Origin: Acidimicrobiia bacterium UBA6912
GTDB lineage: Bacteria; Actinomycetota; Acidimicrobiia; Spongiisociales; UBA5794
Length of the DNA: 43,436 bases
Reading direction: 5' to 3'
Assembly: GCA_002450985.1 (NCBI GenBank)
Contig: DKBA01000001.1
Coordinates: forward strand, 1-43,436
In this document: positions 6,129 through 38,779 of the stretch, piece after piece
How the letters are laid out: the number at the start of each line of letters is the position of its first letter
How positions within the stretch are numbered: position 1 is the stretch's first letter
Notes under the pieces: model-generated
The model's database searches: none
Seen by the model: only the letters and a program-made list of their open reading frames with translations
What the model was told of the DNA's origin: nothing
Made by a program: the position numbers and the translations under genes

Positions 6129-6134
6129 CAGTCG

Positions 6135-6258: not shown

Positions 6259-6265
6259 GGTCGCC

Positions 6266-8257
6266 GTGTCTCGTCTCGGCCGCTCACTTCGCCTGATCCG
6301 CATCGGTGAGACGCCGCGACTCATGACGCTGGCCGGACTCGTGGGCGTGGGAGCGGGTCTCGGGGCCGTGGTGCTGATCACTGCCATCGAGCTGGTGACG
6401 TCGACGGCCGGCTGGATCGGCGACACCCTCTCGCTTGGCCGGTTCTGGCCGCTGGTGATCTTGCCGGTTGGGATCTGGCTGTCGTGGCAGCTCACGTCTC
6501 GGTTCGCGCCCGAAGCAGCGGGCCATGGCGTCCCGCATATCATCGCCGCCATCGCCCTGCGCGCCGGCACGATCCGGTCGCGGCTCATCACCGTGAAGAC
6601 GACCGCTACGGCGGTGACCATCGGGAGCGGTGGCTCAGTGGGGCGCGAAGGCTCGATCGCCCAGATCGGCGCATCGATCGGCTCGTGGATCGCACGGAAG
6701 GCCCGACGCCGCGAGAACGACGTACGGGTGCTCGTCGCTGCGGGAGCGGGCGCCGGGATCAGTGCGACGTTCAACGCGCCGATCGCCGGGATGCTGTTCG
6801 CCATGGAGGTCATCCTCCAGGAGTTCGCCCTTCGGCACGTGCACACCATCGTGATCGCCTCCGTTGCCGGGGCGGTCGTCAGCCGTTCGATCATCGGCGA
6901 GGAGCTGACGTTCCAGGTGTCGCCCTACTCCCTCGACGATCCCAGCCAGTTGCTGCTCTACGCGCTCCTCGGGCTGGCGTGCGTGGCGGGTGCGTGGTTC
7001 TTCCTGGTCGGCCTCGATTGGTTCGAGATCGTGCCGCGGCGGATGCCGGCATGGCTGCGCCCTCTCGTGCTCGGGTCGGTGGTCGCCTTGCTGGGACTGC
7101 TTCATCCCGAGGTGCTCGGCACGGGTCAGGACTTCGTCGGCGGGCTGCTGCGGGGCGAGGGCGACCTCGCATGGTGGACGCTCGGGATCCTCGCCGTGTC
7201 GAAGGCCATCGCCACCTCCGCCACGCTGGGCGGTCGGGGGGCAGGGGGCATCTTCATGCCGAGCCTGTTCATCGGGGCCGCCACCGGTTCGGGTGCAGCG
7301 CTCCTGTTCGCCAGGGTGTGGTCGTGGAGCGAGGTCCAGCCCGGCGCTTTTGCGCTCGTAGGAATGGCGGCCACGTTCTCCGCCGTCGCCCGGGCGCCGC
7401 TGACCTCGATCCTCATCGTGTTCGAGATCACCGGCGACTACGGGCTGGTGTTGCCGCTCATGATCGCTACCGCGATCAGCACGATCCTCGCCGGCGTCGT
7501 GCGTCCCGAGAGCGCCTACACGGCGCCGCTCGCCCGCATGGGGATCCATCCCGTGCACGCAGGTGTCACCGACCTCCTCGACACGATCAGGGTCGGCGAT
7601 GTGGTCGGTCGGGGCACGGTCACGGTTGCGCTGGACGCGACGCTCGGCGAGGTGCAGGGAGTGCTCCATCGCGCCCATCTTCGCGGGGTGCCCGTCGTCT
7701 CCGACGGCCGGCTCGCGGGCATCGTGGCAGAGAGCGACATCGCCCGTGCGGGCGGTCCCTCCGATCAGATCACCGCCGCGGACGTGATGACCCCGAGCCC
7801 GGCGACGGTCAACATGGACACGCGCGTGTCCGAAGCCCTCGAGCGTATGGCGGCGCTCGGGGTGGGAAGGCTGCCGGTCGTGGCGTCGCACGACCCGGAC
7901 CGCCTGCTCGCGGTCTTCCGGCGCGAGGACGTGATCGCCGGATACCACCAAGCGCTGAGCGTCACCGCACGAGCGCATGCCGTGCCCGAGAGGGTGCGCG
8001 CCCGCACCCAGGCCGGGGCCGAGTTCTTCGAGCTCACCGTGCCGCCCGGTTCCGTTGCCGACGGCCGCAAGGTGAGCGAGGTTCCGTGGCCGGAGGGCTG
8101 CCTGCTCGTCTCGATCCATCGTGGTACCGAACAGATCGTGCCGTCGGGCGCCACCGCGCTGATCGCCGGCGACGCCATCACCATGTTTGGCGGACTCGAA
8201 GCGCACGCCCGGCTCGTCGAACGCCTCGCGGCGAGCGCGGAGCCGCCCGCCGGTTGA
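6266..8257 (+). CDS. ClC-family voltage-gated chloride channel/antiporter with C-terminal CBS pair and TrkA-C (RCK_C)-like domain (663 aa)
   Basis: GREGSIAQIG (GxEGP-type), GISATFNAPIAGMLFAMEV, GGIFMPSLFIGA (GxFxP-type), many hydrophobic helices. Two CBS-like units (VVGRGTVTVALDATLGEV...VPVVSDGRLAGIVAESDI; VMTPSPATVNMDTRVSEA...LPVVASHD). Tail FFELTVPPGSVADGRKVSEV...LLVSIHRGTEQIVPSGATALIAGDAITMFG is typical of TrkA-C. Start GTG 6266 (TACCCT 7 nt upstream) or ATG 6323. Confidence 0.9.
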   Translation: MSRLGRSLRLIRIGETPRLMTLAGLVGVGAGLGAVVLITAIELVTSTAGWIGDTLSLGRFWPLVILPVGIWLSWQLTSRFAPEAAGHGVPHIIAAIALRAGTIRSRLITVKTTATAVTIGSGGSVGREGSIAQIGASIGSWIARKARRRENDVRVLVAAGAGAGISATFNAPIAGMLFAMEVILQEFALRHVHTIVIASVAGAVVSRSIIGEELTFQVSPYSLDDPSQLLLYALLGLACVAGAWFFLVGLDWFEIVPRRMPAWLRPLVLGSVVALLGLLHPEVLGTGQDFVGGLLRGEGDLAWWTLGILAVSKAIATSATLGGRGAGGIFMPSLFIGAATGSGAALLFARVWSWSEVQPGAFALVGMAATFSAVARAPLTSILIVFEITGDYGLVLPLMIATAISTILAGVVRPESAYTAPLARMGIHPVHAGVTDLLDTIRVGDVVGRGTVTVALDATLGEVQGVLHRAHLRGVPVVSDGRLAGIVAESDIARAGGPSDQITAADVMTPSPATVNMDTRVSEALERMAALGVGRLPVVASHDPDRLLAVFRREDVIAGYHQALSVTARAHAVPERVRARTQAGAEFFELTVPPGSVADGRKVSEVPWPEGCLLVSIHRGTEQIVPSGATALIAGDAITMFGGLEAHARLVERLAASAEPPAG

Positions 8258-8564: not shown

Positions 8565-9470
8565 TCAGCCGTGCGTCCCGGCTCCGGCGGTCGTGGCGAG
8601 GACGGCGGCGACGTGGTCACTCATCGCCCACGTGTAGTGACCGTGATCCGGCCAGACCTCGAGCTGTGCCGCAGGGAGCTGGGCGGCGAGCCACTCACCG
8701 ACCGACGCCGGTACGTTGCGATCCGCCGCGGCGTACCAGAGGCGGGCCTGCGTCGTGATCCGACCGAGATCGAATCCCCACGAGGTGCGATAGAGGCCGG
8801 CCTCGTAGGCGGCGCCGCGCCCGGAACCGACCAATGCCTCGCGAGCGACGCCGAGGAACCAGTCCCTGACGTCGGGCCGAGACATCATCGCTTGGTCGGG
8901 TGCGCTCATCACACGCTGCGCCGCTGCGAAGAAGCGTTCGCTCCGGCCAGTGCGGAGAGCGAGTGCGGCCATCGCGTACTCCAGCCTGCGGAGCAGCGGG
9001 TTCGCCGGGATCCCGGCAATGCCAGGCGATTCGCGCATTCCGGGCGCCTCGATCGGTCCTGATCCGACGACGATCCCGACTCGGGTCACCCGGGCGCCGA
9101 GCAGCAGGGCGCACGCCAGTGCATAGGGGGCGCCGCCGGACGCACCGAGGACCGAGAACCTCCCGATGCCGAGCCTGTCTGCGGCTTCGGCGACATCGCC
9201 CGGCCAATCGAGGATCCGCCGGCCCGGCTGGAACGTGGAGAAGCCGTACCCCGGGCGCTCCAGCACCACCACCCGGGCGGGCACCTGGTGGCGAACGACG
9301 ATGGGCTCTGCCAGCCTCATCTCCAGCCGGCACCCGGGGAAGCCGTGGCAGTAGACGACGGTGGCGGCATCGGGCGATCCCCACTCGGCGTATCCGATGT
9401 GGCGCCCGTCCCCAAGCGCCAACGACCCTTCGATCACGTCCCCACCGTCGTCCGCCGCAGGGTGCTTCAC
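8565..9470 (-). CDS. Alpha/beta-fold hydrolase (301 aa)
   Basis: VVYCHGFPGCRLE (HG oxyanion region), nucleophile elbow SVLGASGGAPYA (GxSxG), C-terminal WPDHGHY (His region). GTG start at 9470. Confidence 0.8.
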   Translation of the reverse strand: MKHPAADDGGDVIEGSLALGDGRHIGYAEWGSPDAATVVYCHGFPGCRLEMRLAEPIVVRHQVPARVVVLERPGYGFSTFQPGRRILDWPGDVAEAADRLGIGRFSVLGASGGAPYALACALLLGARVTRVGIVVGSGPIEAPGMRESPGIAGIPANPLLRRLEYAMAALALRTGRSERFFAAAQRVMSAPDQAMMSRPDVRDWFLGVAREALVGSGRGAAYEAGLYRTSWGFDLGRITTQARLWYAAADRNVPASVGEWLAAQLPAAQLEVWPDHGHYTWAMSDHVAAVLATTAGAGTHG

Positions 9471-25882: not shown

Positions 25883-26290
25883 TCACGCGTCGGGGACGAC
25901 GGCGGTCGTGACGATCTCGATGACGGCTCGCGGCTCCACGAGCTCGGTGACGCCGAGCATCGCCATGGCGGGGAAGTGCCCGCCCATGTGTGTGCGCCAC
26001 ACGGCGCCGACCTCCCGGAGGTTTCCCCGGTACTCGTCCATCGCCGTGGTGTAGAGGTTCATCGCCACGACGTGCTCGGGAGCGGCGCCGGCGGCGGCGA
26101 GGGCGGTCACGACGTTGCCGAGCGCGGTATCGAACTGTTCGACGAGGCCCGGGCCGGTGAGTCGGCCCTCGGCATCGACGCCGATCTGGCCGGCGACGTA
26201 GACCGTCCTGCCCGGGGCGGGCACGACGGCGTGGGAGAACCCACGGGCCGCCACCATGCCCTCGGGCGACAGCAACTCGTGGGGGGTCAC
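25883..26290 (-). CDS. RidA/YjgF/L-PSP family protein (135 aa)
   Basis: GFSHAVVPAPGRTVYVAGQIGVD...NLYTT...PAMAMLGVTELV. GTG 26290 overlaps the hydratase stop (GTGA) and has GGAGGGG upstream. Confidence 0.8.
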   Translation of the reverse strand: MTPHELLSPEGMVAARGFSHAVVPAPGRTVYVAGQIGVDAEGRLTGPGLVEQFDTALGNVVTALAAAGAAPEHVVAMNLYTTAMDEYRGNLREVGAVWRTHMGGHFPAMAMLGVTELVEPRAVIEIVTTAVVPDA

Positions 26291-27114
26291 CTGCCCCTCC
26301 ACTGCGGGGTGCGGCCCTCCATGAACGCCGCATGGAACTCGGCGTGGTCGGACGTCGTCATCAGCAGCGCCTGCGTCATCGCCTCGAGCTCGAGCGCCGG
26401 GGCCAGTCCCATGTCGCTCTCCCGGGTGAGCAGGAGCTTCGTGGCGCGGTAGGCGAAGGTGGGGCCACCGGCGATGCGAGCCGCCAGCTCGCCTGCGGCG
26501 GAGGCCACCTCGGCATCGGGCACGACCCGAGTCGCGAGCCCGATCTCGAGGGCGCGGGCGGCGTCGACGGGGTCGCCGAACATAAGGATCTCGGTCGCCC
26601 GCCCCAGCCCCACGAGGCGGGGGAGGAGGTAGGCCGAGCCCATGTCGCCGCCGGAGAGACCGACCTTGGTGAAGAGGAAGTGGAAACGGGCGGACTCGGC
26701 GACCATGCGGAAGTCGGCGGCGAGGGCGATGACCGCACCCGCCCCTGCGGCGGTGCCGTTGACCGCGGCCACGATGGGGACGGGGCACTCCCGCATGTTC
26801 TGGACGACGGCGCCGGTCATCTTCGTGAACTCGAGCAGGTCGCGGGCGTCCATCGCGAGCAGCTCACCGATGATGGCGTCGACGTCGCCCCCCGAGCAGA
26901 AGCCCTTGCCGCGGCCGGTGATCACGAGCGCCTCGACGTCGTCGCGCAGGGGGAGGGCGCGCAGCAGATCACGCAGATCGGCGTACACCTCGAAGGTCAA
27001 GGCATTGAGCTTCCCTGGGCGGTTGAAGGTGAGCGTCGCCACCTGGCCGGCCACGTCGAAATCGAAGTGTTCCCACGATCGGCTGAACGGGTCGGAGGTG
27101 CGGAAGGGGCTCAT
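26287..27114 (-). CDS. Enoyl-CoA hydratase/isomerase (crotonase) family protein (275 aa)
   Basis: TLTFNRPGKLNAL, GKGFCSGGDV, AAVNGTAAGAGAVIALAADFR. ATG 27114 overlaps the SDR stop (ATGA). Confidence 0.85.
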   Translation of the reverse strand: MSPFRTSDPFSRSWEHFDFDVAGQVATLTFNRPGKLNALTFEVYADLRDLLRALPLRDDVEALVITGRGKGFCSGGDVDAIIGELLAMDARDLLEFTKMTGAVVQNMRECPVPIVAAVNGTAAGAGAVIALAADFRMVAESARFHFLFTKVGLSGGDMGSAYLLPRLVGLGRATEILMFGDPVDAARALEIGLATRVVPDAEVASAAGELAARIAGGPTFAYRATKLLLTRESDMGLAPALELEAMTQALLMTTSDHAEFHAAFMEGRTPQWRGR

Positions 27115-27866
27115 TGCTGGAGATCGCCCCCATCGATGAGGATCGACTGGCCGTTGATCGCCCCCGCCGCGTCCGAGGCGAGGAAGGCCACGGCGGCGGC
27201 CACCTCCTCGGGTTCGATGAGCCGCCCGAGACGGGTGCCGGCGAGGAGGGCTGCGAGCGCCTCCTCCTCGGAGCGTGAGGTCTTCTCCATGATGTTGGCG
27301 ATCGTGCGCTCCGTCATCGGGGTGCGCACATATCCCGGGCACACCGAGTTGGCGGTGATCCCGCTGCCGGGAAGCTCGGCCGACAGCGACCGCATCAGGC
27401 CGAGAACGGCATGTTTGGACGCCACATAGGCGGCGATGTAGGGGGCTCCCTGGTGCGAGGCGACGGAGGCGATGGTGACGATCCGTCCCCAGCCTCGCTC
27501 CCGCATGCCGGGCAGAACTTGCTGGATGCAGAGCAGCGGTCCGGTGGCGTTCACGCGGAGCATCCGATCCCAGGAGGCGAGGTCGATGCGCTGCACCGGG
27601 GCGGAGTCGGCGATGCCTGCGTTGTTGACCAGCACATCGACGGGTCCCGCCGCCGCAAACGCCTCCGTCACGGACGCCGGATCGGTCACGTCGCATGCCA
27701 CCGTGGTGACCGGCCCGGGTGCCGCCGCAGCCGTTGCGGCGAGGGCCTCCTGGTCCCGCCCCATCGCCACGACGTGGAACCCCTCGGCCGAGAGCCGCTC
27801 GACCACGGCGCGGCCGATGCCCTTGTTGCCGCCCGTCACCACGGCGCGTCGCACACGCTCGCTCAT
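27111..27866 (-). CDS. SDR-family oxidoreductase, 3-hydroxyacyl-CoA-dehydrogenase/FabG-like (251 aa)
   Basis: RRAVVTGGNKGIGRAV, NNAG, YVASKHAV. ATG 27866 is preceded by TATCGT plus 6 nt, suggesting a leaderless transcript. The upstream 31 codons of the track ORF are rejected. Confidence 0.85.
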   Translation of the reverse strand: MSERVRRAVVTGGNKGIGRAVVERLSAEGFHVVAMGRDQEALAATAAAAPGPVTTVACDVTDPASVTEAFAAAGPVDVLVNNAGIADSAPVQRIDLASWDRMLRVNATGPLLCIQQVLPGMRERGWGRIVTIASVASHQGAPYIAAYVASKHAVLGLMRSLSAELPGSGITANSVCPGYVRTPMTERTIANIMEKTSRSEEEALAALLAGTRLGRLIEPEEVAAAVAFLASDAAGAINGQSILIDGGDLQQ

Positions 27867-27872
27867 GGGGTC

Positions 27873-27878
27873 ACGATA
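27873..27878 (-). promoter_or_regulatory. Candidate -10 box (TATCGT) positioned for a leaderless SDR/hydratase/RidA operon transcript
   Basis: TATCGT-GACCCC-ATG(27866) read on the minus strand. No SD. Confidence 0.3.
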
Positions 27879-27923
27879 GAGCCCGCGCCGGCCGGCGTGC
27901 CGGAACGCAGCGCCCGCCGCAAC

Positions 27924-27929
27924 TAGGCT
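27924..27929 (+). promoter_or_regulatory. Candidate -10 box (TAGGCT) for the fused hydroxylase/reductase operon
   Basis: TAGGCT lies about 34 nt upstream of ATG 27963, followed by GAGGAGGA SD (27947-27954). It sits in the 96-bp divergent intergenic region. Confidence 0.25.
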
Positions 27930-27962
27930 CGGTGCGGCCGATCGGCGAGGAGGACGCACCAG

Positions 27963-30266
27963 ATGAGAGTGGCCTGCATCGGCGGCGGGCCCGGCGGGCT
28001 CTTCCTGTCGATCCTGCTACGCACGAGCGACCCCTCGATCGAGGTCGACGTGTTCGAGCGCAACGCCCGCGACGCCACGTTCGGGTTCGGCGTGGTGTTC
28101 TCCAACGAGACCCTCGACAATCTCGCTGCTGCGGATGGGCCGAGCCTGGAGCGGATCCAGCGCGAGTTCCGCTCGTGGGGCGAGATCGACACCTATCACC
28201 GCGGACGCTGGGTCCGCTCGACCGGTCACGGCTTCTCGGCGATCTCGCGGCTTCGCCTGCTGCAGATCCTCGCCGAACGGGCCGAGGAGGTGGGGGCGAA
28301 GGTCGTCTTCGAGAGCGACCTCGGGGTCGGCGATCTCGCCGGGTACGACCTCGTCGTGGCGGCGGACGGCGTCAACAGCGCAACCCGCAACGCCCGGCCG
28401 GCCGCCTTTGCACCCACCGTCGAGATGGGATCGGCGCGCTTCGTGTGGTTGGGTACGCACAAGCTCTTCGACGGCTTCACGTTCCTGTTCGAGGAGACGC
28501 CCTACGGCGTCGTGCAGGCCCATTGCTACCCGTTCGACGCCACGACCAGCACGATCATCGTCGAGATGGACCAGTCGACGTGGCGTAGGGCGGGCCTCGA
28601 CGCCGCAGAGCACCGTGGGTTGGAGCCGGGGGAGAGCGACCCGCAGGCCCTCGAGTTCGCCGAGGAGGTGTTCGGGCGTCATCTCGATGGCCAGGGTGTC
28701 ATCGGCAACAACTCGGTGTGGCGGACGTTCCCCACGGTGCGCTGCGACCGCTGGTACGACGGCAACGTGGTGCTGCTCGGCGACGCCGTGCACACCGCGC
28801 ATTTCTCGATCGGGTCGGGCACCAAGCTCGCGATGGAGGACGCCGTTGCGCTCGCCGAGGCCCTCGATGGTGAGCGGGACATCGCAACGGCGCTCGCCGT
28901 CTACCAGGAGGCACGCAAACCCGTCGCCGACAGCCTGCAGCGGGCCGCGGACACCAGCCGGGCGTGGTTCGAGTCGGTGGATCGCTACGCCTCGCTCCCC
29001 ACCCCTCAGTTCGTGTTCCAGCTGCTGACCCGTTCCCAGCGCATCACCCACGACAACCTCAAGCTGCGCGACCCGGACCTCGTTGCGCAGGCCCTCGAGT
29101 GGTTCCGCTCGACCGTCCCTGCGCACCTGCGCCCGCCCGACCCGGCCACCCCCCCGATGTTCTACCCGTTCGAGCTGCGCGGGCTCCGGCTCGCCAACCG
29201 GGTGGTGGTGTCCCCGATGGCGCAGTACTCGGCCGTCGACGGCTGCGTGACCGATTGGCACCTCGTCCACCTCGGCAGTCGCGCCGTTGGCGGCGCCGGT
29301 CTGGTGATGACGGAGATGACGTGCGTGTCCCCGCAGGGGCGGATCACCCCCGGCTGCGCCGGCCTGTGGAACGACACCCAGCAGGAGCGGTGGGCGCCGA
29401 TCGTCGACTTCGTGCATCGGGAGACCGGGGCTGCGATCGGGCTCCAACTGGGTCACGCAGGACGCAAGGGCTCGGTGAAGGTGCCGTGGGAAGGTGGGGG
29501 AGACCACACGCCGCTCGACGAGGGCAACTGGCCGTTGCTCGCCCCCTCGGCGCTTCCCTGGCACGCCGGGTCGCAGACGCCGGCCGAGATGACCAGGGCC
29601 GACCTGGACGCCGTCGTCGCGCAGTTCGCAGCCGCCACCCGGCGCGGCGCCGAGCTCGGCTTCGACCTGCTCGAGCTCCACTACGCCCACGGGTACTTGC
29701 TGTCCTCGTTCCTGTCGCCGCTCACCAACCGACGGGAGGACGAGTACGGCGGGTCGTTCGAGAACCGGCTCCGCTTCCCCCTCGAGGTGCTCGCCGCGGT
29801 GCGGCGGGCGTGGCCAGACGACAAGCCGCTCTCGGTCCGGATCTCCGCCACCGATTGGGTGGAGGGCGGGGTCACGGCCGAGGACGGGGCCGCCATCGCC
29901 GCAGCACTGGCCGCTCACGGCTGCGACATCGTCGACGTCTCGTCCGGCCAGGTCCACCCGGACCAGGCCCCGTTGTACGGCCGTCTCTACCAGACGCCCT
30001 TCAGCGACCGGATCCGCCACGAGGTCGGCGTGCCCACGATCACGGTTGGGGCGGTGTCGAGCGTCGACGACGTCAACACGATCATCCTGGCGGGAAGAGC
30101 CGACCTGTGCGCCCTCGCCCGGCCTCATCTCGTCGATCCGTACTGGACGCTCAACGCCGCCGTCGACCAAGAGTTCGCCGGTCATCCGTGGCCTTCGCAG
30201 TATCTGTCCGGTCGCACCGCACGCCGCAGAGAGCAGGACCCGCTACGTCGCGTCCCGACGGAGTGA
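27963..30266 (+). CDS. Bifunctional FAD aromatic hydroxylase / Old-Yellow-Enzyme-type reductase fusion (2-aminobenzoyl-CoA monooxygenase/reductase- or salicylyl-CoA 5-hydroxylase-like) (767 aa)
   Basis: N-half: MRVACIGGGPGGLFL, AADGVNSATR, GDAVHTAHFSIGSGTKLAMEDA. C-half: RVVVSPMAQYS, QLGHAGRKGS, LLELHYAHGYLLSSFLSP. GAGGAGGA SD upstream. Confidence 0.85.
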   Translation: MRVACIGGGPGGLFLSILLRTSDPSIEVDVFERNARDATFGFGVVFSNETLDNLAAADGPSLERIQREFRSWGEIDTYHRGRWVRSTGHGFSAISRLRLLQILAERAEEVGAKVVFESDLGVGDLAGYDLVVAADGVNSATRNARPAAFAPTVEMGSARFVWLGTHKLFDGFTFLFEETPYGVVQAHCYPFDATTSTIIVEMDQSTWRRAGLDAAEHRGLEPGESDPQALEFAEEVFGRHLDGQGVIGNNSVWRTFPTVRCDRWYDGNVVLLGDAVHTAHFSIGSGTKLAMEDAVALAEALDGERDIATALAVYQEARKPVADSLQRAADTSRAWFESVDRYASLPTPQFVFQLLTRSQRITHDNLKLRDPDLVAQALEWFRSTVPAHLRPPDPATPPMFYPFELRGLRLANRVVVSPMAQYSAVDGCVTDWHLVHLGSRAVGGAGLVMTEMTCVSPQGRITPGCAGLWNDTQQERWAPIVDFVHRETGAAIGLQLGHAGRKGSVKVPWEGGGDHTPLDEGNWPLLAPSALPWHAGSQTPAEMTRADLDAVVAQFAAATRRGAELGFDLLELHYAHGYLLSSFLSPLTNRREDEYGGSFENRLRFPLEVLAAVRRAWPDDKPLSVRISATDWVEGGVTAEDGAAIAAALAAHGCDIVDVSSGQVHPDQAPLYGRLYQTPFSDRIRHEVGVPTITVGAVSSVDDVNTIILAGRADLCALARPHLVDPYWTLNAAVDQEFAGHPWPSQYLSGRTARRREQDPLRRVPTE

Positions 30267-30276
30267 GGGCGGTGGC

Positions 30277-31440
30277 ATGAGCGAGTGGCGCCGCGAACTC
30301 CCCCGGCCCGCCGGCCTGATCGATGCCGAGGCGGAGCTGTTCGACCGGGCGCGCCACATCGCCCGCACCGATCTCGCCCCGCTCGCCGAGGCCGGGGAGC
30401 CCGGCCGGTTGCATCGGGCTCTCGTCGCCGCCATGGCCGACGCCGGGCTCGTTCCCCAGCTCTTCCCCGACTCTCACGGAGGGACCCAGCCGGGCGAGGT
30501 GTCTGCCCTGGTCCTGTGCCTGCTGCGCGAGGCCGTGGCCATCGAGTCGCCCGAGGCGGAGACTGCGCTGGCCATGCAGGGCCTCGGATCGTATCCCATC
30601 CTGCAATCTGCCCGCCCCGAGGTGGCGCAGCGATGGATCCCTCAGGTCGCAGACGGACGGGTGATCCCGGCGTTCGCCCTCACCGAGCCCGACGCCGGAT
30701 CGGATGCCGCCGCCCTGTCGGCGCGCGCCGAGCGGGACGGCGACGGGTGGCGGCTCAGCGGGGTGAAGACGTGGATCTCCAATGCACCGGATGCCGATGT
30801 CTACACCATGTTCGCCCGCACCACACCGGATGCCGGCGCGCGGGGCGTGTCCGCCTTCCTCGTGCCCGGCGACAGTGCGGGGCTCGGCGGCGAGCCGCTC
30901 GATCTGCTGTCGCCCCACCCGATCGGGACCGTCACCATGGATGGGGTGTACGTGCCTGCCGAGCACCTCCTCGGCGAGGTCGACCGCGGCTTCCCTGTTG
31001 CGATGCGCACCCTCGACCGCTTCCGCCCGTCGGTGGGTGCGTTTGCGGTCGGCATGGCGCAGGCGGCGCTCGAGGCCGCCATCGACCACGCTGCGACGCG
31101 GACGGCCTTTGGCGGCCCCCTGCGCGATCTGCAGGCCGTGGCCCATGCCCTGGCGGAGATGGAGGTGGCGACGCACACCGCCCGCCTGGTGGTGCACGAC
31201 GCAGCGCGGGCCTTCGATGCCGGCACCGAGCCGCTCACGATTCGCTCGTCGATGGCGAAGCTGTATGCGACCGAGGCGGCGCAGCGTGTCGTCGATGCCG
31301 CGATCCAGATCCACGGGGCACGGGGGCTCGAGCGCGGCCACCTGCTCGAGCGGCTCTACCGGGACGTGCGGGCCCCCCGCATCTACGAGGGCGCCTCGGA
31401 GGTGCAGCGTTCGATCATCGCCCGTCGTCTCTATGGATGA
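30277..31440 (+). CDS. Acyl-CoA dehydrogenase (387 aa)
   Basis: FALTEPDAGSDAAAL, WISNAPDADV, IYEGASEVQRSIIAR (catalytic Glu region). ATG lies 10 nt after the preceding stop. Confidence 0.9.
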   Translation: MSEWRRELPRPAGLIDAEAELFDRARHIARTDLAPLAEAGEPGRLHRALVAAMADAGLVPQLFPDSHGGTQPGEVSALVLCLLREAVAIESPEAETALAMQGLGSYPILQSARPEVAQRWIPQVADGRVIPAFALTEPDAGSDAAALSARAERDGDGWRLSGVKTWISNAPDADVYTMFARTTPDAGARGVSAFLVPGDSAGLGGEPLDLLSPHPIGTVTMDGVYVPAEHLLGEVDRGFPVAMRTLDRFRPSVGAFAVGMAQAALEAAIDHAATRTAFGGPLRDLQAVAHALAEMEVATHTARLVVHDAARAFDAGTEPLTIRSSMAKLYATEAAQRVVDAAIQIHGARGLERGHLLERLYRDVRAPRIYEGASEVQRSIIARRLYG

Positions 31441-31560
31441 CGTGGAGCGCATCGACCCGCACGCAGTGTCCTAACGTGGCTGCGCGCCGGCCGCCGGGAG
31501 CCGACCGAGCGGTGGCGGCTGCAGAGGGCAGGGCAGACGAGAGAGGCGAGGGCTTGCCCC

Positions 31561-33477
31561 ATGGCTGAGGAGTCCGGTTCGGCCTCACACGGTGCTCCTC
31601 ATGGTGGCGACGCCTCCAAGTACCTGCTCCTCATGTCGCTCGGGGCGCTCGGGGTGGTGTACGGCGACATCGGGACCAGCCCGCTCTATGCGCTGCGCGA
31701 GTCGTTCGTCGCCGCGGAGGGTCTCCCCGTGACCAAGGAGAACGTGCTCGGCGTCCTCTCCCTGATGATCTGGTCGCTCATCGTCGTGGTGACGGTCAAG
31801 TACCTGGCCTTCGTCATGCGCGCCGACAACCACGGGGAGGGCGGGATCCTCGCCCTCACGTCACTCATCACCCCGGCCAACCGGGGACGGCGGGCCGGGG
31901 TGCGGTGGGGACTCGTGCTGCTCGGACTGTTCGGCACCGCGCTCCTGTACGGCGACGGTGTGATCACGCCTGCCATCTCCGTCCTCTCTGCGGTGGAGGG
32001 CGTCGCCGTTGCGTCACCGGGGCTGGAGTCGTACGTCGTTCCCGCCGCCGCCGTGATCCTCGTCATCCTGTTCAGCATCCAGCGCAAGGGCACCGCGACC
32101 ATCGGCGCCGTGTTCGGGCCGGTGATGATCGTGTGGTTCGGCGTGCTCGCCGCGCTCGGTCTGTACCGGCTGCTCGGGGAGATCGACGTCATCGCTGCCG
32201 CAGTGCCCACCCACGCCATCACCTTCTTCACGACCCACCCCAAGCTGGGGTTCCTCGCGCTCGGGGCGGTCTTCCTCGTCGTCACCGGCTCCGAGGCGCT
32301 CTATGCGGACATGGGTCATTTCGGATCACGGCCGATCCGGCTCGGCTGGTTCTCCATCGTGTTCCCCGCCCTGCTCCTCAACTACCTCGGCCAGGGCGCG
32401 CTCCTGATCGACGACCCCGGCGCCATCACCAATCCCTTCTACGCGATGCCGCCCGGCTGGGCCGTGGTGCCACTCGTCGTGCTCGCCACGCTGGCGACGG
32501 TCATCGCTTCGCAGGCGCTGATCTCCGGAGCGTTCTCGCTGACGATGCAGGCGATCCAGCTCGGCTACCTGCCCAGGGTCCGCATCGATCACACCTCGCC
32601 TCGCCAGTTCGGACAGATCTACATCCCTTCCGTCAACTGGGCGCTGATGCTGGGGTGCGTCGGGCTCGTCTTCTCCTTCGGCTCGTCGACGAACCTGGCG
32701 GCTGCCTACGGGGTTGCGGTCACGTCCACGATGGTGATCACGACGATCCTCCTCTACTACGTCATGCGAGAGCGGTGGGGGTGGCCGCAGGCGCCCGCGC
32801 TCGCCCTCAGCGGCGTGTTCGGCGTAGTGGACGTCGCGTTCTTCGCGGCGAACATCGTCAAGGTGCCTGCCGGCGGCTGGTTCCCGCTGCTCGTCGGGGC
32901 CCTGGTGTTCACGACGATGACGACATGGGAACACGGCCGGGCGCTGCTGGCGGCGCGGCTGCATCGCGGCGAGCTGCCGGTCGAGCGCTTCATCGGGTCG
33001 ATCGCGGTGCATCCGCAGCCGCGGGTCTCGGGGACCGCGTTCTACATGTTCCCGGAGACCGGGGCGACCCCTCCGGCGCTGCTCGCCAACCTCCGCCACA
33101 ACGGGATGATCCACGAGACGGTTGCGCTCGTCGCGGTCCGCACCGCTTCGGTGCCCCGCGTCCCCCAGGCGCGGCGGGAGACCGTCCACGACCTCGGCGA
33201 AGGGTTCGTCCAGATCGAGCTGGCGTTCGGGTTCATGGAGGAACCCAACGTGCCGGCTGCGCTGTCCAACATCGTGTCCCCCGAGTTCGGGTTCACGATG
33301 AGCGACGCCGTCTTCTTCCTCGGCCGGGAGTCGGTGATCCCGAGTGAGGTGCCCGGGATGGCCAGGTGGCGTGAGCACCTCTTCGCGTTCATGCACCGAA
33401 ACGCATCGAGCGCCGCCGGCTTCTTCGGACTGCCCAGCGACCGAGTCGTCGAGATCGGGCTCCGGGTCGAGATCTGA
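31561..33477 (+). CDS. kup: KUP/HAK/KT potassium uptake transporter (638 aa)
   Basis: LGALGVVYGDIGTSPLYAL hallmark, 12 hydrophobic segments, soluble C-terminal domain. Confidence 0.95.
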   Translation: MAEESGSASHGAPHGGDASKYLLLMSLGALGVVYGDIGTSPLYALRESFVAAEGLPVTKENVLGVLSLMIWSLIVVVTVKYLAFVMRADNHGEGGILALTSLITPANRGRRAGVRWGLVLLGLFGTALLYGDGVITPAISVLSAVEGVAVASPGLESYVVPAAAVILVILFSIQRKGTATIGAVFGPVMIVWFGVLAALGLYRLLGEIDVIAAAVPTHAITFFTTHPKLGFLALGAVFLVVTGSEALYADMGHFGSRPIRLGWFSIVFPALLLNYLGQGALLIDDPGAITNPFYAMPPGWAVVPLVVLATLATVIASQALISGAFSLTMQAIQLGYLPRVRIDHTSPRQFGQIYIPSVNWALMLGCVGLVFSFGSSTNLAAAYGVAVTSTMVITTILLYYVMRERWGWPQAPALALSGVFGVVDVAFFAANIVKVPAGGWFPLLVGALVFTTMTTWEHGRALLAARLHRGELPVERFIGSIAVHPQPRVSGTAFYMFPETGATPPALLANLRHNGMIHETVALVAVRTASVPRVPQARRETVHDLGEGFVQIELAFGFMEEPNVPAALSNIVSPEFGFTMSDAVFFLGRESVIPSEVPGMARWREHLFAFMHRNASSAAGFFGLPSDRVVEIGLRVEI

Positions 33478-33504
33478 GGTCAGCCGGCCGAGATTCGCGT
33501 CCGG

Positions 33505-35043
33505 TCAGGACTCGGTCATCTCGATCCTGGCCGCCAGCGCCCTGCGGTCGACCTTGCCCAGGTGGGTCTTGGGGAAGTCGTCGACGAGCACGACGCGACG
33601 AGGGTGTTTGTAGGGCTCGAGCCGCGCCAGCACGTGCTCGATCAGCTCCTGCTCGAGTCCTGGGTGGCGCACCCGGGCGACCACGAACGCCACGGGCTTG
33701 ACCAGCCCGGCATCGTCGGCGACACCGACCACGACGCATTCGACGACGGCGTCGTGCTCGAGGAGGCACCCCTCCACCTCCTGCGGGGCGAGCCACTTGC
33801 CGGAGACCTTCATCGAATCGTCCGCCCTGCCGTGATGCTCGATGTAGCCGTCGGCGTCACGGCGCACGAGGTCACCCCCGACGAACCACTCGCCCCGGAA
33901 GGCGGCGGCAGTGCGGGGCAGGTCCTGCCAGTAGCCCCATGCCCGTGATGCGCCCCGCACCCAGAGCCGTCCGATCTCGCCGTCGGCGACGTCCTCTCCG
34001 GCCTCGTCGCAGATGCGCACGTCGAACCCGGGGACCGGCGTGCCCAGGGTGCCCGGCTTCACGTCGCCCGGGCGGTTGGTCAGGAAGATGTGCCACATCT
34101 CGGCGGTGCCGAGACCGTCGAGCAGCTCGACGCCATAGGCCGCCGTCCACTGGTGGTAGAGCTCGGCCGGCAAGGCCTCGCCTGCGGATGTCGCCAGCCG
34201 CAGCGAGGAGAGATCCGCCTGTGCCGCCTGCGGGTCGGCCAGCATCTTGGCGATCATCGTGGGTACCGTGACGAGGATGGTGGGCCGGTGCCTTGCGATC
34301 TGCTCGACGATGAGTGCCGGGGTGGGATGGTCGGGGAAGAGCACGGCCGAGGCGCCGACGGAGAACGGGAAGAACAGATTGGAGCCGGTGGCGTACCCGA
34401 AGATGAGCTTCGGGATCGAGATCGTGATGTCGTCCTCTCGGTAGCCGATGATCTCGTGGGCGTAGCGCAACGTGGTGTTCAGGAACGACCCGTGGGTCTG
34501 GATCACGGCCTTCGGGGTCCCGGTGGTGCCTCCGGAGAAGAGCCAGAGGGCCGGATCGTCGCGATGGGTGACGGCGGCGGGAAACGAGATCTCGTGGGTG
34601 ATGGCGTCGGCGAACGTGTCGAGCAGGGGATGGCCGACGCCGGCGAGCGACATGGCCTCCGCGGCGAGGACCGAGAGGTCGTGGCCGGCGACGACGGCGC
34701 CCGGCCGGGCGAGCCGGAGGATGTCGGCGATGCGGTCTCTGGGGAGATCCGGATTCACCATCACCCCGACTGCCCCGAGCTTCAAGGCACCGAACAGGGC
34801 GCCGACGAAATCCGCTCCGTCGCGCGCGATCAAGACCACCCGCTCCTCACGCCGCACCCCGGCATCGGCGAGGGCTGCGGCGTAGCCGGAAGCCAGCGCC
34901 TCGACCTCGGCATACGTCATGGTCCGGTCGGACAGGCGAAGGGCGGTGCGGTCTCCGCGACCCTCGGCGAGTCGCCGGGTCAGGAACACCTCCGCCAGGT
35001 TCACCTCTCGAGGCACGGCGGGTCCGGGAGCTGATTGCGGCAT
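33505..35043 (-). CDS. Aryl-CoA ligase of the benzoate/2-aminobenzoate/4-hydroxybenzoate-CoA ligase type (AMP-binding superfamily) (512 aa)
   Basis: LFSGGTTGTPKAVIQTHGSF (AMP motif), GYATGSNLFFPFSVGASAVLF, GDLVRRDADGYIEHHGRADDSMKVSGKWLAPQEVE. Confidence 0.85.
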   Translation of the reverse strand: MPQSAPGPAVPREVNLAEVFLTRRLAEGRGDRTALRLSDRTMTYAEVEALASGYAAALADAGVRREERVVLIARDGADFVGALFGALKLGAVGVMVNPDLPRDRIADILRLARPGAVVAGHDLSVLAAEAMSLAGVGHPLLDTFADAITHEISFPAAVTHRDDPALWLFSGGTTGTPKAVIQTHGSFLNTTLRYAHEIIGYREDDITISIPKLIFGYATGSNLFFPFSVGASAVLFPDHPTPALIVEQIARHRPTILVTVPTMIAKMLADPQAAQADLSSLRLATSAGEALPAELYHQWTAAYGVELLDGLGTAEMWHIFLTNRPGDVKPGTLGTPVPGFDVRICDEAGEDVADGEIGRLWVRGASRAWGYWQDLPRTAAAFRGEWFVGGDLVRRDADGYIEHHGRADDSMKVSGKWLAPQEVEGCLLEHDAVVECVVVGVADDAGLVKPVAFVVARVRHPGLEQELIEHVLARLEPYKHPRRVVLVDDFPKTHLGKVDRRALAARIEMTES

Positions 35044-35153
35044 GGCGCTTGCTCTGCGATCGCGGGCTCGGCATCATATCCGACGGTGGCGGCGACCCGC
35101 CAGGACGCTGCGTCGCGGGCGCCGCCGGCCACCGCCAGCGGGAGAGCATCGGC

Positions 35154-36260
35154 ATGACGGACTCGGGTGGGCGACCCCCGGTGTACTACCACGACTACCT
35201 CCGGCTCGACCGGCTGCTCAGCAGCCAGGCGCCCGAGTCGGCCAAGTACGGCGACGAAGCTCACGACGAGCTGCTGTTCATCATCGTTCACCAGGCCTAC
35301 GAGCTGTGGTTCAAGCAGATCCTCCACGAGCTGGACGACGTGCACGAGGTCTTCAGCCGCCCCTTCGTGCCCGAGCGCGAGATGGGCAGGGTGGCGTCCC
35401 GGCTCGAGAGGGTCGTCGCCATCCAACGGATCCTGATCGACCACGTGGACGCCCTGGAGACGATGACACCGCTCGACTTCCTCGACTTCCGCGATCTGCT
35501 CGTGCCGGCCAGCGGGTTCCAGAGCCTCCAGTTCCGTCTGATCGAGAACCTGCTGGGCCTGCCCCACGAGCAGCGTGTCCTCATCAACGAAGCGGACTAT
35601 ACGACTCGCTTCTCGTCCGAGCACCGGGACATCCTCGAGCGGTCTCATGGCCGCGCTTCCCTCTTCGAGCTCGTCGACGCCTGGCTCCAGCGCACCCCGT
35701 TCCTCCACTTCGGCGACTTCGACTTCTGGGACTCGTACCGGGACGCCGTCGCCCGCATGCTCGACCGGGATCGCTCCCTGATCGTGTCCAACCCCAACCT
35801 CACCGAAGAGGGTCGCGGCGAGCAGCTCGCCAGGTTCGATGCGACCGCCGACACCTTCGCCGCGCTGTTCGACGCCGAGCGGTACGAGGCGCTCCTGGCC
35901 GGCGGCATACGGCGGCTGAGCCGGGAGGCGTTCCTCGCTGCGCTCCTCATCAACCTCTATCGAGACGAACCGATCCTGCAACTCCCGTTCCGGGTGCTGC
36001 GGGCGCTCATGGACGTCGACGAGGGCTTCACGACATGGCGTTACCGCCACGCGATCATGGTGCAGCGCATGATCGGCTCGAAGATCGGCACCGGGGGCAC
36101 GAGCGGGCACGACTACCTCCGGGAGACCGCCCGCCGCCACCGGGTGTGGAACGATCTCTTCGACCTCTCGACGTTCTTCATCCCTCGCTCCGAGCTTCCG
36201 GAGCTCCCCGAATCGGTGGCGGAGGCGATGCGGTTTCACCCCACTTCTGAGCCTCGGTGA
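35154..36260 (+). CDS. kynA: Tryptophan 2,3-dioxygenase (368 aa)
   Basis: YYHDYLRLDRLLSSQ, DELLFIIVHQAYELWFKQILHEL, RHAIMVQRMIGSKIGTGGTSGHDYL. GGGAGAG SD upstream of ATG 35154. The first 35 codons of the track ORF are rejected. Confidence 0.9.
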   Translation: MTDSGGRPPVYYHDYLRLDRLLSSQAPESAKYGDEAHDELLFIIVHQAYELWFKQILHELDDVHEVFSRPFVPEREMGRVASRLERVVAIQRILIDHVDALETMTPLDFLDFRDLLVPASGFQSLQFRLIENLLGLPHEQRVLINEADYTTRFSSEHRDILERSHGRASLFELVDAWLQRTPFLHFGDFDFWDSYRDAVARMLDRDRSLIVSNPNLTEEGRGEQLARFDATADTFAALFDAERYEALLAGGIRRLSREAFLAALLINLYRDEPILQLPFRVLRALMDVDEGFTTWRYRHAIMVQRMIGSKIGTGGTSGHDYLRETARRHRVWNDLFDLSTFFIPRSELPELPESVAEAMRFHPTSEPR

Positions 36261-37390
36261 GCTATCGACGCTGGTTCCGCAGCTTCCTCGGCGCCGAGCG
36301 GCTGCACTTCGCCGCCCATTCCCATCACCTGTGGCCGGACGTCACCCATGATGCCCACGACCGGGCATGGCGGGATGCCGCGGAGCACGCCGATCACAAG
36401 TGGGACCTCGTGCTCGGCGAGGTGGTGCCCGAGACGCAGGGCCATGTCGCCGCCCGCATCGGGTTGCCCGACCCGACCACCATCGCGATCGCCCCCAACA
36501 CCCATGAGCTCGTCAACCGACTCGTCTCCTCGCTCCCGCAGCCGCTCCGTATCCTGAGCACCGACGGAGAGTTCCACAGCTTCCGGCGCCAGGCCGACCG
36601 ATGGGAGGAGGCGAAGTTGGCGTTCGTGGATCGGGTGCCGGTGGAGCCGTTCGCCACATTTCCCGATCGCTTCGTCGATGCCGCCCACGACGGCCACGAT
36701 CTCGTCTACGTCAGCCACGTCTTCTACGACTCGGCGTACGCGATCCCCGATCTCGCCGGGTTGGTGGACGCGCTCCCGCTCGACCCGGTCGTCGTCATCG
36801 ACGGCTACCACGGGTTCATGGCGATCCCAACCGATATCGGCCCGATCGGCCACCGGGTGTTCTACACGGCCGGCGGGTACAAGTACGCGATGGCGGGCGA
36901 GGGCGTGTGCTTCATGCACTGTCCGCCGGGCGTCGTGTCTCGCCCCGTCGATACCGGGTGGTTCGCCGGCTTCGGCGCCCTCGAAGGCGAGCAGATCGGC
37001 GTGCCCTACCCACGGGACGCAGCGCGTTTCTGGGGTGCGACGTTCGACCCCACGCCTCTGTATCGCTTCAACGCCGTGCAGCGGCTCCTCGACACTGAGG
37101 GGATCGATGTCGCTGCGATCCACGACCACGTGATGGGCCTCATCTCACGGTTCGTCGCAGGTCTCGCCGGGAGCCAGGCGCTCGGCGAGCTGATCCCGTC
37201 GTGGGGATCGGTGGAGGAGCGGGGCCACTTCCTCACGTTTCGCGGCCCGGACACCGCGAGGTTGCACGATCGCCTCGATGCGGCGGGCGTCGTCACCGAC
37301 CGCAGGGGCGACCGATTGCGCATCGGGTTCGGTATCTATCACGATGAGGGTGACGTCGATAGCCTGCTTGGCATCGTGCGGAGCCTGTGA
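36257..37390 (+). CDS. Class-V aminotransferase-fold PLP enzyme, kynureninase-like (377 aa)
   Basis: GTG 36257 overlaps the kynA stop (GTGA). TAGGYKYAMAGEGVCFM resembles the kynureninase PLP-lysine region. Shorter than canonical KynU and with a different N-terminus, so the function is inferred mainly from context. Confidence 0.65.
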   Translation: MSYRRWFRSFLGAERLHFAAHSHHLWPDVTHDAHDRAWRDAAEHADHKWDLVLGEVVPETQGHVAARIGLPDPTTIAIAPNTHELVNRLVSSLPQPLRILSTDGEFHSFRRQADRWEEAKLAFVDRVPVEPFATFPDRFVDAAHDGHDLVYVSHVFYDSAYAIPDLAGLVDALPLDPVVVIDGYHGFMAIPTDIGPIGHRVFYTAGGYKYAMAGEGVCFMHCPPGVVSRPVDTGWFAGFGALEGEQIGVPYPRDAARFWGATFDPTPLYRFNAVQRLLDTEGIDVAAIHDHVMGLISRFVAGLAGSQALGELIPSWGSVEERGHFLTFRGPDTARLHDRLDAAGVVTDRRGDRLRIGFGIYHDEGDVDSLLGIVRSL

Positions 37391-37414
37391 CCGTCTCAAC
37401 GTCAGGAGAGAGCG

Positions 37415-38779
37415 ATGACGGAGTACACCAAGATCACGCTCGACGAGAGCGAGATGCCCACCCAGTGGTACAACATCATCCCCGATCTGCCCGCCCCGCC
37501 GCCGCCACCCCTGCACCCCGGCACCCACCAGCCGATCGGCCCGGACGATCTCGCTCCGCTGTTCCCGATGGCGCTGATCGGCCAGGAGGTGTCGACCGAC
37601 CGTCACGTCGACATCCCCGGTGAGGTCCTCGACATCTACCGCCTGTGGCGCCCATCCCCGCTGTACCGAGCCCATCGCCTCGAGAAGCTGCTCGATACTC
37701 CTGCGAGGATCTACTACAAGTACGAGGGCGTGAGCCCCGCCGGCTCCCACAAGCCCAACACGGCGGTGCCGCAGGCGTTCTACAACGCCGCCGAGGGGGT
37801 GAGGAAGCTCACGACGGAGACGGGCGCCGGCCAGTGGGGGAGTGCGCTCTCTCTCGCGTGTGCCATGTTCGACATGGAGTGCGAGGTGTGGCAGGTGCGA
37901 GCCTCGTACGACGCCAAGCCGCACCGGAAGACGATGATGGCCGTGTGGGGCGCCACCGTGCACCCGAGCCCGTCGGACGTGACGAACGCCGGAAGGACCA
38001 TCCTCGCCCAGGACCCCGACAGCCCCGGCTCACTGGGTATCGCCATCTCGGAAGCCGTCGAGGCGGCCGCCGCCGATCCGACGGTGAAGTACGCGCTCGG
38101 CAGCGTGCTCAACCACGTCCTCATGCACCAGACGATCATCGGTGAGGAGGCGCTGCTCCAGTTCGCAAAGATCGGCGAGACGCCCGACGTCCTCGTCGGC
38201 TGCACCGGCGGCGGCTCGAACTTCGGTGGTCTCTCCTTCCCCTTCCTGCGCGAGAAGCTCGCAGGACGGATGAGCCCGACCATCCGGTGCGTCGAGCCCG
38301 CGGCGTGTCCGTCGTTGACCAAGGGCGTCTACCGGTACGACTTCGGCGATACGATCGGCATGACGCCGCTCGTGAAGATGCACACGCTCGGCCACGACTT
38401 CGTGCCGGATCCGATCCACGCCGGGGGACTGCGGTACCACGGGATGGCACCGCTCGTGTCGCACCTGTACGAGATGGGTCTCGTCGAGGCCGAGGCGATC
38501 GGCCAGCTCGAGTGTTTCGACGGCGCCCTCAAGTTCGCCAAGACCGAAGGCATCATCCCCGCCCCGGAGCCGACCCACGCCATTGCGGCGGCCATCAGGG
38601 AGGCCAACCGGGCCAAGGAGAGCGGCGAGGAGCGCGTCATCCTCACGGCATTGTGCGGGCACGGGCACTTCGACCTCAAGGCCTACGAGGACTTCCTCGG
38701 CGGCCACATGGTGGACTACGAATACCCTGCGGAGAAGGTGGCGGCGGCGATGGAGAGGGTGCCCGTCATCGAAGACTGA
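37415..38779 (+). CDS. trpB2: TrpB2-type tryptophan-synthase-beta-like PLP enzyme (454 aa)
   Basis: [22 protein letters not shown] long N-terminal arm, [18 protein letters not shown] (PLP Lys), [34 protein letters not shown], 24 nt after the preceding stop. Confidence 0.85.

Follow-up and report, generated by a model that had tools for sequence, protein, structure and literature searches.

A tryptophan 2,3-dioxygenase and kynureninase-like gene set linked to predicted genes for CoA-dependent anthranilate catabolism in an Acidimicrobiia bacterium

The stretch of DNA analysed here (the window) comprises positions 1-43,436 of contig DKBA01000001.1 from Acidimicrobiia bacterium UBA6912 (GCA_002450985.1). 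It has a G+C content of approximately 70% and is identical to part of a 53.7 kb public metagenome contig (ENA ERZ925368 k127_329780), for which independent gene calls agree. At positions 25883-38779, genes of the kynurenine (kyn) type lie beside genes that resemble the abm genes for CoA-dependent degradation of anthranilate (2-aminobenzoate), and the probable function of this locus is the catabolism of tryptophan to CoA esters that are no longer aromatic. The identities of the genes, their operon structure and their conserved linkage were read directly from this DNA and from related loci; the substrates, and the steps that would follow the fused flavoprotein, are predicted. Eleven genes were counted in the locus, ten of which are itemised below. 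The coordinates and family labels given in a preliminary description of this DNA agreed with the ORF calls and profile matches, with one correction: the end of kynA lies at 36260, where the reading frame stops, and not at 36250.

Linkage of the two gene sets was analysed in related loci (designated by L numbers; L003 is the public contig with the window locus and 10 kb on each side). In all the closer relatives of the flavoprotein that were examined (64-86% identity; L087, L006, L167, L168, L169 and L007), kynA adjoins abm-like genes, in four arrangements. Contig L087 begins inside the acyl-CoA dehydrogenase (ACAD) gene, with the flavoprotein off the contig, and matches the window from ACAD to the tryptophan synthase beta-like gene trpB2, including the potassium transporter gene kup (ACAD 89% and kynU-like protein 74% identical). 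L006 (flavoprotein 75% identical) is arranged as the window with an empty slot between ACAD and the aryl-CoA ligase gene, and L167 (74%) as the window with an unrelated 1041-aa gene in that slot. L168 (67%) carries flavoprotein-ACAD-PaaX and then a minus-strand operon, kynA-kynU-ECH-RidA-hydrolase-TrpB2-ligase (ECH, enoyl-CoA hydratase); L007 (64%) is arranged like L168, the locus in which PaaX was seen. A plus-strand operon is found in L169 (67%), with the order pAL1-type ligase-SDR-ECH-RidA-flavoprotein-ACAD-short-type tryptophan 2,3-dioxygenase (TDO; SDR, short-chain dehydrogenase/reductase; pAL1, an Arthrobacter plasmid, NC_009453), and both its TDO type and its ligase type differ from those of the window. 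Two further arrangements that include the flavoprotein were found in L091 and L095. Across at least six diverged lineages the linkage is found again, in differing gene orders. The kynU proteins of the linked lineages are 50-64% identical to each other; with identity down to approximately 50%, the linked loci are therefore not one recent clone.

The survey was repeated from the kyn side with 80 metagenome loci gathered with the kynU-like protein. The window-type ligase was present in 13 of them (54-82% identity), nearly always divergent from kynA and in several lineages; ECH (63-67% identity) was found with RidA in 11 and ACAD in nine. Among the 17 kynA/kynU-like loci of at least 8 kb, ligase, ECH and RidA were each found in eight and ACAD in seven. 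Pairing of the window-type ligase with kynA-kynU, from which it diverges, is the feature most commonly retained. A second lineage of loci (lineage 2; contigs PVMK01171712.1 and ERZ25039494 contig_26938 belong to it) has a gene set comprising a ligase, a second SDR, kynA-kynU, RidA, ECH, a membrane protein, ACAD and a CoA-binding protein. The preliminary description had proposed that the kyn and abm-like genes are functionally joined and that the substrate is tryptophan-derived anthranilate, and had named chance adjacency, with the two sets never syntenic in related genomes, as the contrary outcome. Synteny is retained in relatives, rearranged and in places operonic, which is contrary to the latter and supports the proposal: the kyn-abm linkage is conserved and is very unlikely to be due to chance.

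Two observations were made on individual loci of these surveys. L007 (CAXMOL010000177.1), alone among the GTDB loci in having the complete kyn and abm arrangement, is labelled as an uncultured Kiloniellaceae (Alphaproteobacteria) metagenome-assembled genome (MAG); its genes are 55-82% identical to those of the window, its flavoprotein groups with flavoproteins of Acidimicrobiia MAGs in the tree described below, and mis-binning or horizontal acquisition may account for this contig. A conserved gene of approximately 400 aa lies between ECH and ACAD in loci that are devoid of the fused flavoprotein (L099:7562-8758(-), L102, L103, L137, L170:12370-13566(-)); its weak match to COX1 (haem-copper oxidase subunit I) suggests a membrane protein.

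The fused flavoprotein (27963-30266, plus strand, 767 aa) consists of an FAD_binding_3 domain (PF01494, residues 2-327) and an Oxidored_FMN domain (PF00724, residues 399-732). The motifs previously quoted for the fusion were all located (at residues 6, 135, 273, 417 and 498), and residues are conserved over 12 family members. The protein is 50-54% identical to its counterparts on pAL1 and in R. erythropolis BG43, and is proposed to be an anthraniloyl-CoA monooxygenase/reductase.

Gene contexts were surveyed in the best 80 GTDB species-level flavoprotein loci, with 10-kb flanks, by tblastn scoring. Two context types were found and were never mixed. Type A (45 of the 80 loci) contains ECH and/or ACAD, often with SDR, RidA, a pAL1-type ligase and PaaX, and occurs in Streptomyces, Solirubrobacterales, Acidimicrobiia and Burkholderiales; the order in Pandoraea (L051, Burkholderiales) is flavoprotein-SDR-ECH-ACAD-ligase-RidA. 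This inventory is presumably that of the abm genes of Azoarcus evansii. Type B (10 of the 80) combines RidA and an acyl-CoA thioesterase with a 160-aa monocupin, an FAH-family hydrolase, a ligase and PaaX; it includes pAL1 (L001:22136-29049) and R. erythropolis BG43 pRLCBG43 (L002:6972-14376), and was also seen in L014, L015, L034, L045, L057, L060, L066, L074, L075 and L078. The type-B gene set would fit a pathway with hydroxylation of anthranilate, release from CoA, cleavage and deamination via 5-hydroxyanthranilate; this set arises several times independently in the flavoprotein tree. Regardless of type, RidA was found within 10 kb of the flavoprotein in 58 of the 80 loci, ECH in 42 and the pAL1-type ligase in 38.

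The window belongs to type A and contains no type-B gene. The abm-like inventory of ECH, SDR, ACAD and RidA around the fused flavoprotein, as read in the preliminary description, was recovered in full and is shared by 45 of the 80 other species loci, where the genes flanking the flavoprotein are 45-79% identical to those of the window. A tblastn search with the pAL1 thioesterase gave no homologue in L003, and no thioesterase domain was found in the genes of the locus; likewise, neither the locus nor its flanks contained a ring-cleaving cupin dioxygenase (gentisate type) or an FAH homologue. The window is therefore not of the Sdg/pAL1 type, in which the substrate is hydroxylated and released.

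The ECH gene (26287-27114, minus strand) encodes a 275-aa crotonase-family protein (NF006107/PRK08258; 377.7 bits against NF006107, cut-off 330), and orthologues that are 56-79% identical lie beside the flavoprotein in the 42 loci mentioned above. The SDR (27111-27866, minus strand, 251 aa; PF00106/PF13561) resembles 3-hydroxybutyrate and 3-oxoacyl reductases and has orthologues in L006, L167, L169, L091 and Ilumatobacteraceae loci. The ACAD (30277-31440, plus strand, 387 aa) matches four ACAD Pfam domains and is encoded behind the flavoprotein in L006, L167, L168, L169 and L007; its closest NCBIfam models are cyclohexane-1-carbonyl-CoA dehydrogenases, and an alicyclic substrate is only hinted at because the scores are far below the cut-offs. 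The RidA/YjgF-family protein (25883-26290, minus strand, 135 aa; PF01042, 74 bits) has orthologues encoded next to kynU in lineage-2 loci. The ATGA (27111-27114) and GTGA (26287-26290) overlaps that chain the minus-strand genes, and the 10-nt spacer ahead of ACAD, were confirmed by reading the sequence.

The kynA gene (35154-36260, plus strand) encodes a 368-aa TDO of the long type, which matches the full PF03301 profile (358 bits) and contains the distal and proximal His motifs (HQxxELWF and WRYRH...GTGGTSG). It scores just 160 bits against TIGR03036 and is therefore not of the short bacterial TDO type. The gene overlaps the kynU-like gene by GTGA and, because of this overlap, the two are probably translationally coupled.

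The kynU-like gene (36257-37390, plus strand) encodes a 377-aa pyridoxal phosphate (PLP) enzyme of the class-V fold. The single sequence had no PDB match at E<=1 and passed no Pfam or NCBIfam model, its match to KYNU_C being sub-threshold. A family profile built from 13 members matched the P. fluorescens kynureninase 1qz9 (E=3.7e-12; next protein 8.5e-6). In the profile alignment, GGYKYAMAGEG of the window protein lies opposite the YKY PLP-lysine motif, VIDGYHG opposite the Asp/His (D-x-x-H) motif, TGWF opposite SGWF, and RLRIGFG opposite the C-terminal Arg that binds the substrate carboxylate. An AlphaFold model (pLDDT 82) gave 1qz9 as the top Foldseek match (TM 0.78), with cysteine desulfurases nearly equal. 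The label 'kynU-like' is fair; 1qz9 is the best match by profile and by fold, and the catalytic Lys, Asp and Arg are kept. Because these matches coincide with probable translational coupling to a TDO, the protein is a probable kynureninase of a divergent family, a distant relative of the known enzyme. The family has at least 8000 matched database proteins, with many members in Actinomycetota, and its pipeline names are 'aminotransferase class V-fold', 'selenocysteine lyase' and 'kynureninase'.

Members of the kynU-like family (approximately 50% identical to that of the window) also occur in many long loci with no kynA within 10 kb (L110, L116, L119, L125, L127-L129, L133, L139, L143, L144, L148, L150, L155, L164 and L166). 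As those of L110, L125, L133 and L150 are 73-91% identical to each other, the kynA-less members are probably a paralogous subfamily with another function.

Divergent from kynA, the ligase gene (33505-35043, minus strand) encodes a 512-aa protein of the benzoate-CoA ligase family, which passes TIGR02262 (471 bits, cut-off 375), a model failed by the pAL1 anthranilate-CoA ligase (338 bits). From its conserved pairing with kynA-kynU, it is proposed to be an anthranilate-CoA ligase.

The proposed route would proceed as follows. KynA would convert tryptophan to N-formylkynurenine, which a formamidase encoded elsewhere would convert to kynurenine, and the kynU-like enzyme would cleave kynurenine to anthranilate and alanine. 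The divergent TIGR02262 ligase would then form anthraniloyl-CoA, on which the fused flavoprotein would act by the known chemistry of AbmA (as cited in PMC3534580). RidA would hydrolyse the enamine/imine to dioxocyclohexane-carboxyl-CoA, the ring nitrogen leaving as ammonia; this product is compatible with the C7H8O4-CoA of Arthrobacter (PMC3534580). Finally, ECH, SDR and ACAD would open and shorten the ring in a manner resembling beta-oxidation, with ECH hydrating or hydrolytically opening the alicyclic CoA ester.

Several observations weigh against this assignment. No kynurenine formamidase was found among the scanned genes of the 43-kb window. Kyn genes were present in only one of the 80 best GTDB flavoprotein loci (L007), and the kyn-abm linkage is therefore restricted to certain clades and is not general to the flavoprotein family. 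In lineage 2 (L099, L103, L115, L126, L136, L137, L157 and L170), no flavoprotein was found within 10 kb. The ligase is approximately 33% identical to the confirmed actinobacterial (pAL1-type) anthranilate-CoA ligases, and its PDB scores are alike for benzoate-CoA ligase (2v7b, 358 bits) and for the anthranilate-CoA ligase AuaEII (4wv3, 353 bits). The flavoprotein passes NF006101 (1104 bits, cut-off 1078), a model named 'bifunctional salicylyl-CoA 5-hydroxylase/oxidoreductase'. A neighbour-joining tree of 85 family members, labelled by context, tracks taxonomy, and types A and B interleave in it, so that substrate types are not separated. The presence of TrpB2, a tryptophan-forming enzyme, inside or near tryptophan-degrading operons is odd.

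Regarding the missing step, the preliminary description had inferred a complete route from tryptophan to a non-aromatic CoA ester in this locus; completeness fails on the formamidase. Neither a KynB cyclase nor a homologue of the hydrolase of L168 was found in the window. That hydrolase, an HSL-type alpha/beta hydrolase with HGGFW and GHSAG motifs, is encoded within the operon in L168 (13045-13827(-)) and L007 (16478-17230(-)), and is a good candidate for a non-orthologous kynurenine formamidase (arylformamidase). It is 32% identical to the hydrolase encoded after the dioxygenase gene on pAL1, presumably the N-acetylanthranilate amidase Amq. An alpha/beta hydrolase gene of the window (8565-9470) was considered for the same function and rejected, being unrelated to the L168 candidate and 25 kb away.

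The trpB2 gene (37415-38779, plus strand) encodes a 454-aa TrpB2-type tryptophan synthase beta-like PLP enzyme, which passes NF009057 (728 bits, cut-off 366) and TIGR01415 (630 bits, cut-off 519) and contains the GSHKPN PLP-lysine motif. Its placement had been given correctly, with no role assigned to it, although TrpB2 is recurrent in such loci: genes 77-90% identical adjoin kynA-kynU in at least five lineages (window/L087/L167/L006; L007; L168, within the operon; L091; L105/L111), and lie between the hydrolase and the ligase in L168 and L007. The gene is a conserved accessory, and its product perhaps supplies tryptophan from indole.

That indole, besides tryptophan, enters the pathway of this locus, for indole assimilation or detoxification, is a tentative idea which would extend the tryptophan route. 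A role in indole salvage, with high affinity, has been described for TrpB2 enzymes, and some of these depend on O-phosphoserine. The idea draws on the recurrent adjacency and on two further loci. In L022 (354-4092), a 10-kb contig of a Dormibacterota MAG, TrpB2 (60% identical) lies directly after the flavoprotein on one strand; kynA was not detectable on this contig. In lineage 2, a conserved 265-aa gene occupies the same position, directly after kynU (L099:5464-6258(+), L115:11179-11949, L134, L136, L157 and L117); no Pfam family matched it, and it shows weak similarity to SbnI, an O-phosphoserine synthase/regulator, and to the archaeal serine kinase SerK. The similarity to SbnI is slight (69 bits, cut-off 350) and the fold also occurs in DNA-binding regulators; moreover, lineage-2 loci have no TrpB2, an inserted gene splits it off in L006, and its adjacency could reflect tryptophan homeostasis rather than catabolic flux. 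A fuller version, in which TrpB2 traps indole with serine or O-phosphoserine as tryptophan that KynA, the kynU-like enzyme, the ligase and the flavoprotein then degrade, and in which the kynU-like enzyme and the HSL-type arylformamidase are non-orthologous substitutes for KynU and KynB, is about as tentative. If true, it would be an undescribed form of indole assimilation that dispenses with an indole oxygenase, in uncultured Acidimicrobiia and their relatives. A literature search gave no paper that ties TrpB2 to kynurenine genes.

It is improbable that the kyn and abm-like genes are adjacent by chance or are only loosely associated, with kynA-kynU-TrpB2 serving to turn over tryptophan or to recycle anthranilate and the abm-like genes independently degrading exogenous aromatic acids. 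Such an arrangement would fit the survey of the 80 best GTDB species loci, of which 79 have no kyn genes and carry their own ligase and PaaX instead, as well as the position of kup, which splits the two halves in the window; in addition, L006 and L167 share flanking housekeeping genes with it, so their synteny weighs little. However, the linkage is kept though rearranged in L168/L007, L169, L091, L095 and lineage 2, partly in operons where kyn and abm genes are interleaved and other TDO and ligase types are recruited, and the slot of kup is vacant or otherwise filled in relatives.

The kup gene (31561-33477, plus strand) encodes a 638-aa Kup potassium transporter (TIGR00794, 564 bits, cut-off 540). 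The slot between ACAD and ligase contains kup in the window and in L087, is empty in L006 (13464-13486), and holds a gene for an unrelated 1041-aa CLIPPER_2-like protein in L167 (13579-16704); kup is a passenger in a variable slot, outside the pathway. Two other insertions were observed in L006: a gene for an FG-GAP protein separates SDR from the flavoprotein, and kynU is separated from TrpB2 by an 871-aa gene.

Action of the flavoprotein and the ligase on salicylate or benzoate, in a system like that of the Sdg salicylyl-CoA 5-hydroxylase, is very improbable. The case for it consists of the NF006101 match, the membership of the ligase in the TIGR02262 benzoate-CoA ligase family and its best PDB match, which is a benzoate-CoA ligase. 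NF006101 also captures the pAL1 protein, the host of which grows on anthranilate and not on salicylate (PMC3534580), and the automatic names conflict for this family: the same proteins are named anthraniloyl-CoA monooxygenase by JGI/KEGG and salicylyl-CoA 5-hydroxylase by NCBI. As the context types are interleaved in the tree, the NCBIfam name carries little weight. The locus has neither a thioesterase nor a gentisate-type dioxygenase nor a second activating enzyme, and a RidA deaminase and tryptophan-to-anthranilate genes are linked to it in many lineages. The preliminary description had proposed phylogeny against AbmA and SdgC as a check; the 85-member tree used in its place gave no split by pathway type, and gene context, not phylogeny, is therefore the basis on which the substrate is argued. 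Within that tree, the window flavoprotein falls inside an Acidimicrobiia clade in which all the contexts are of the ECH/SDR/ACAD/RidA type.

For the ligase, PDB similarity was set aside as a guide to specificity, benzoate-CoA and anthranilate-CoA ligases scoring alike; because of this and the 33% identity to pAL1-type enzymes, its specificity was assigned from context only. A biosynthetic role, in which its anthraniloyl-CoA would prime the assembly of a quinolone- or aurachin-type product in the manner of PqsA and AuaEII, is scarcely credible: the near-equal similarity to AuaEII (4wv3), a clear similarity to PqsA (5oe3) and the occurrence of ligase and kynA-kynU in L088/L171 with no abm-like genes would suit it, but biosynthetic genes, such as those for a PKS or a KAS-III-type condensing enzyme, were found neither in the window nor in related loci, and the ligase is flanked by flavoprotein, ACAD, ECH and RidA.

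Two divergent intergenic regions separate the transcription units of the locus: 27867-27962 (96 bp), between the SDR and flavoprotein operons, and 35044-35153 (110 bp), between ligase and kynA. The latter contains the element GGCTCGGCATCATATCC (35061-35077), which is also conserved in L006 and L087. TATGAT occurs in its reverse complement, approximately 20-25 nt upstream of the ligase start codon, and the element may serve the ligase promoter as a -10 box, which would imply a very short leader. Comparison of the two spacers for a shared operator gave only GC-rich 8-9-mers of no evident significance, and this candidate was rejected. No regulator gene was found in the locus, PaaX and binding-protein genes were also absent from the window, and an Rfam scan of the whole window gave no match.

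The genes of the left flank encode an EEP-family protein, a DDAH-like protein, an M20 peptidase and YhhN, and those of the right flank a Flp-like protein, a patatin, a GNAT protein and ThrRS. None has an evident tie to aromatic-acid catabolism, and the cluster boundaries drawn earlier are therefore right. Elsewhere in the window, a gene unrelated to the cluster (3504-6287, minus strand) encodes a 927-aa protein with adenylate/guanylate cyclase and STAND/NB-ARC NTPase domains.

Each of the enzyme families is known, as is the CoA-dependent anthranilate route in A. evansii and in Arthrobacter sp. Rue61a. As regards novelty, the preliminary description knew of no characterised combined locus, and no description of the joined locus was found; the idea of the route is already present in a Cupriavidus reconstruction (PMC8879955), and the CoA route in Rue61a (PMC3534580). 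The Cupriavidus reconstruction was the sole relevant match of a literature search joining kynurenine and aminobenzoyl-CoA genes. The physical or operonic fusion of kyn and abm genes, the ligase-kynA-kynU module, the use of a divergent kynureninase and the association with TrpB2 were not found in the literature. If the assignment is correct, this would be the first description of genes for the kynurenine pathway and for CoA-dependent anthranilate dearomatisation as one genetic unit, and a TIGR02262-type ligase divergent from kynA-kynU would be a genomic marker of tryptophan catabolism via anthraniloyl-CoA in uncultured Actinomycetota. A likely kynureninase function would also follow for the large actinobacterial 'class V aminotransferase' family. 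The recurrent TrpB2 is the one unexpected element, and could point to an entry from indole to tryptophan.

Among known systems, the abm clusters of A. evansii, reportedly described for aerobic 2-aminobenzoate degradation by Schuhle and co-workers in 2001, share with the window the fused flavoprotein, an aryl-CoA ligase, ECH, SDR, ACAD and a YjgF/RidA protein. Unlike those clusters, that of the window is divided among divergent units, with kynA, the kynU-like gene and TrpB2 attached, and its ligase belongs to a subfamily that is not the usual partner of the flavoprotein in abm-type clusters. Aerobic 2-aminobenzoate degradation in Azoarcus (Aromatoleum) evansii proceeds via 2-aminobenzoyl-CoA monooxygenase/reductase, as cited in PMC3534580. 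The actinobacterium Arthrobacter sp. Rue61a grows on anthranilate and not on salicylate; both its ligase genes were shown to give anthranilate-CoA ligase activity, anthraniloyl-CoA, C7H7NO3-CoA and C7H8O4-CoA were detected, and its chromosomal flavoprotein homologue is 50% identical to AbmA (PMC3534580). The clusters of Rue61a (pAL1) and BG43 (pRLCBG43) are, like that of the window, actinobacterial, with the same flavoprotein family and an adjacent RidA. They differ in that a thioesterase, a 160-aa cupin and an FAH-family hydrolase replace ECH, SDR and ACAD, and in that their anthranilate comes from the degradation of quinaldine or alkylquinolones, whereas that of the window would come from the kyn genes.

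The sdgABCD genes of Streptomyces sp. WA46 encode a salicylate-to-gentisate pathway, and their SdgC, the salicylyl-CoA 5-hydroxylase that gives NF006101 its name, has the same fusion architecture as the window flavoprotein. Compared with sdg, the window has no gentisyl-CoA thioesterase or gentisate dioxygenase and a single activating enzyme, and adds RidA and the kyn genes. The bacterial kynA-kynB-kynU pathway likewise leads from tryptophan to anthranilate through a TDO and a kynureninase-family enzyme; the window differs from it in the absence of KynB, the long type of its TDO and the divergent actinobacterial family of its kynureninase-like enzyme. The closest precedent for the overall route is the reconstruction for Cupriavidus metallidurans CH34, from tryptophan (kyn) to anthranilate and (abmG) to 2-aminobenzoyl-CoA and the abm genes (PMC8879955). 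The Cupriavidus loci of our survey (L029 and L031, both short downstream) had no kyn genes in the sequence examined. In contrast to that reconstruction, the kyn and abm sets are physically joined in the window.

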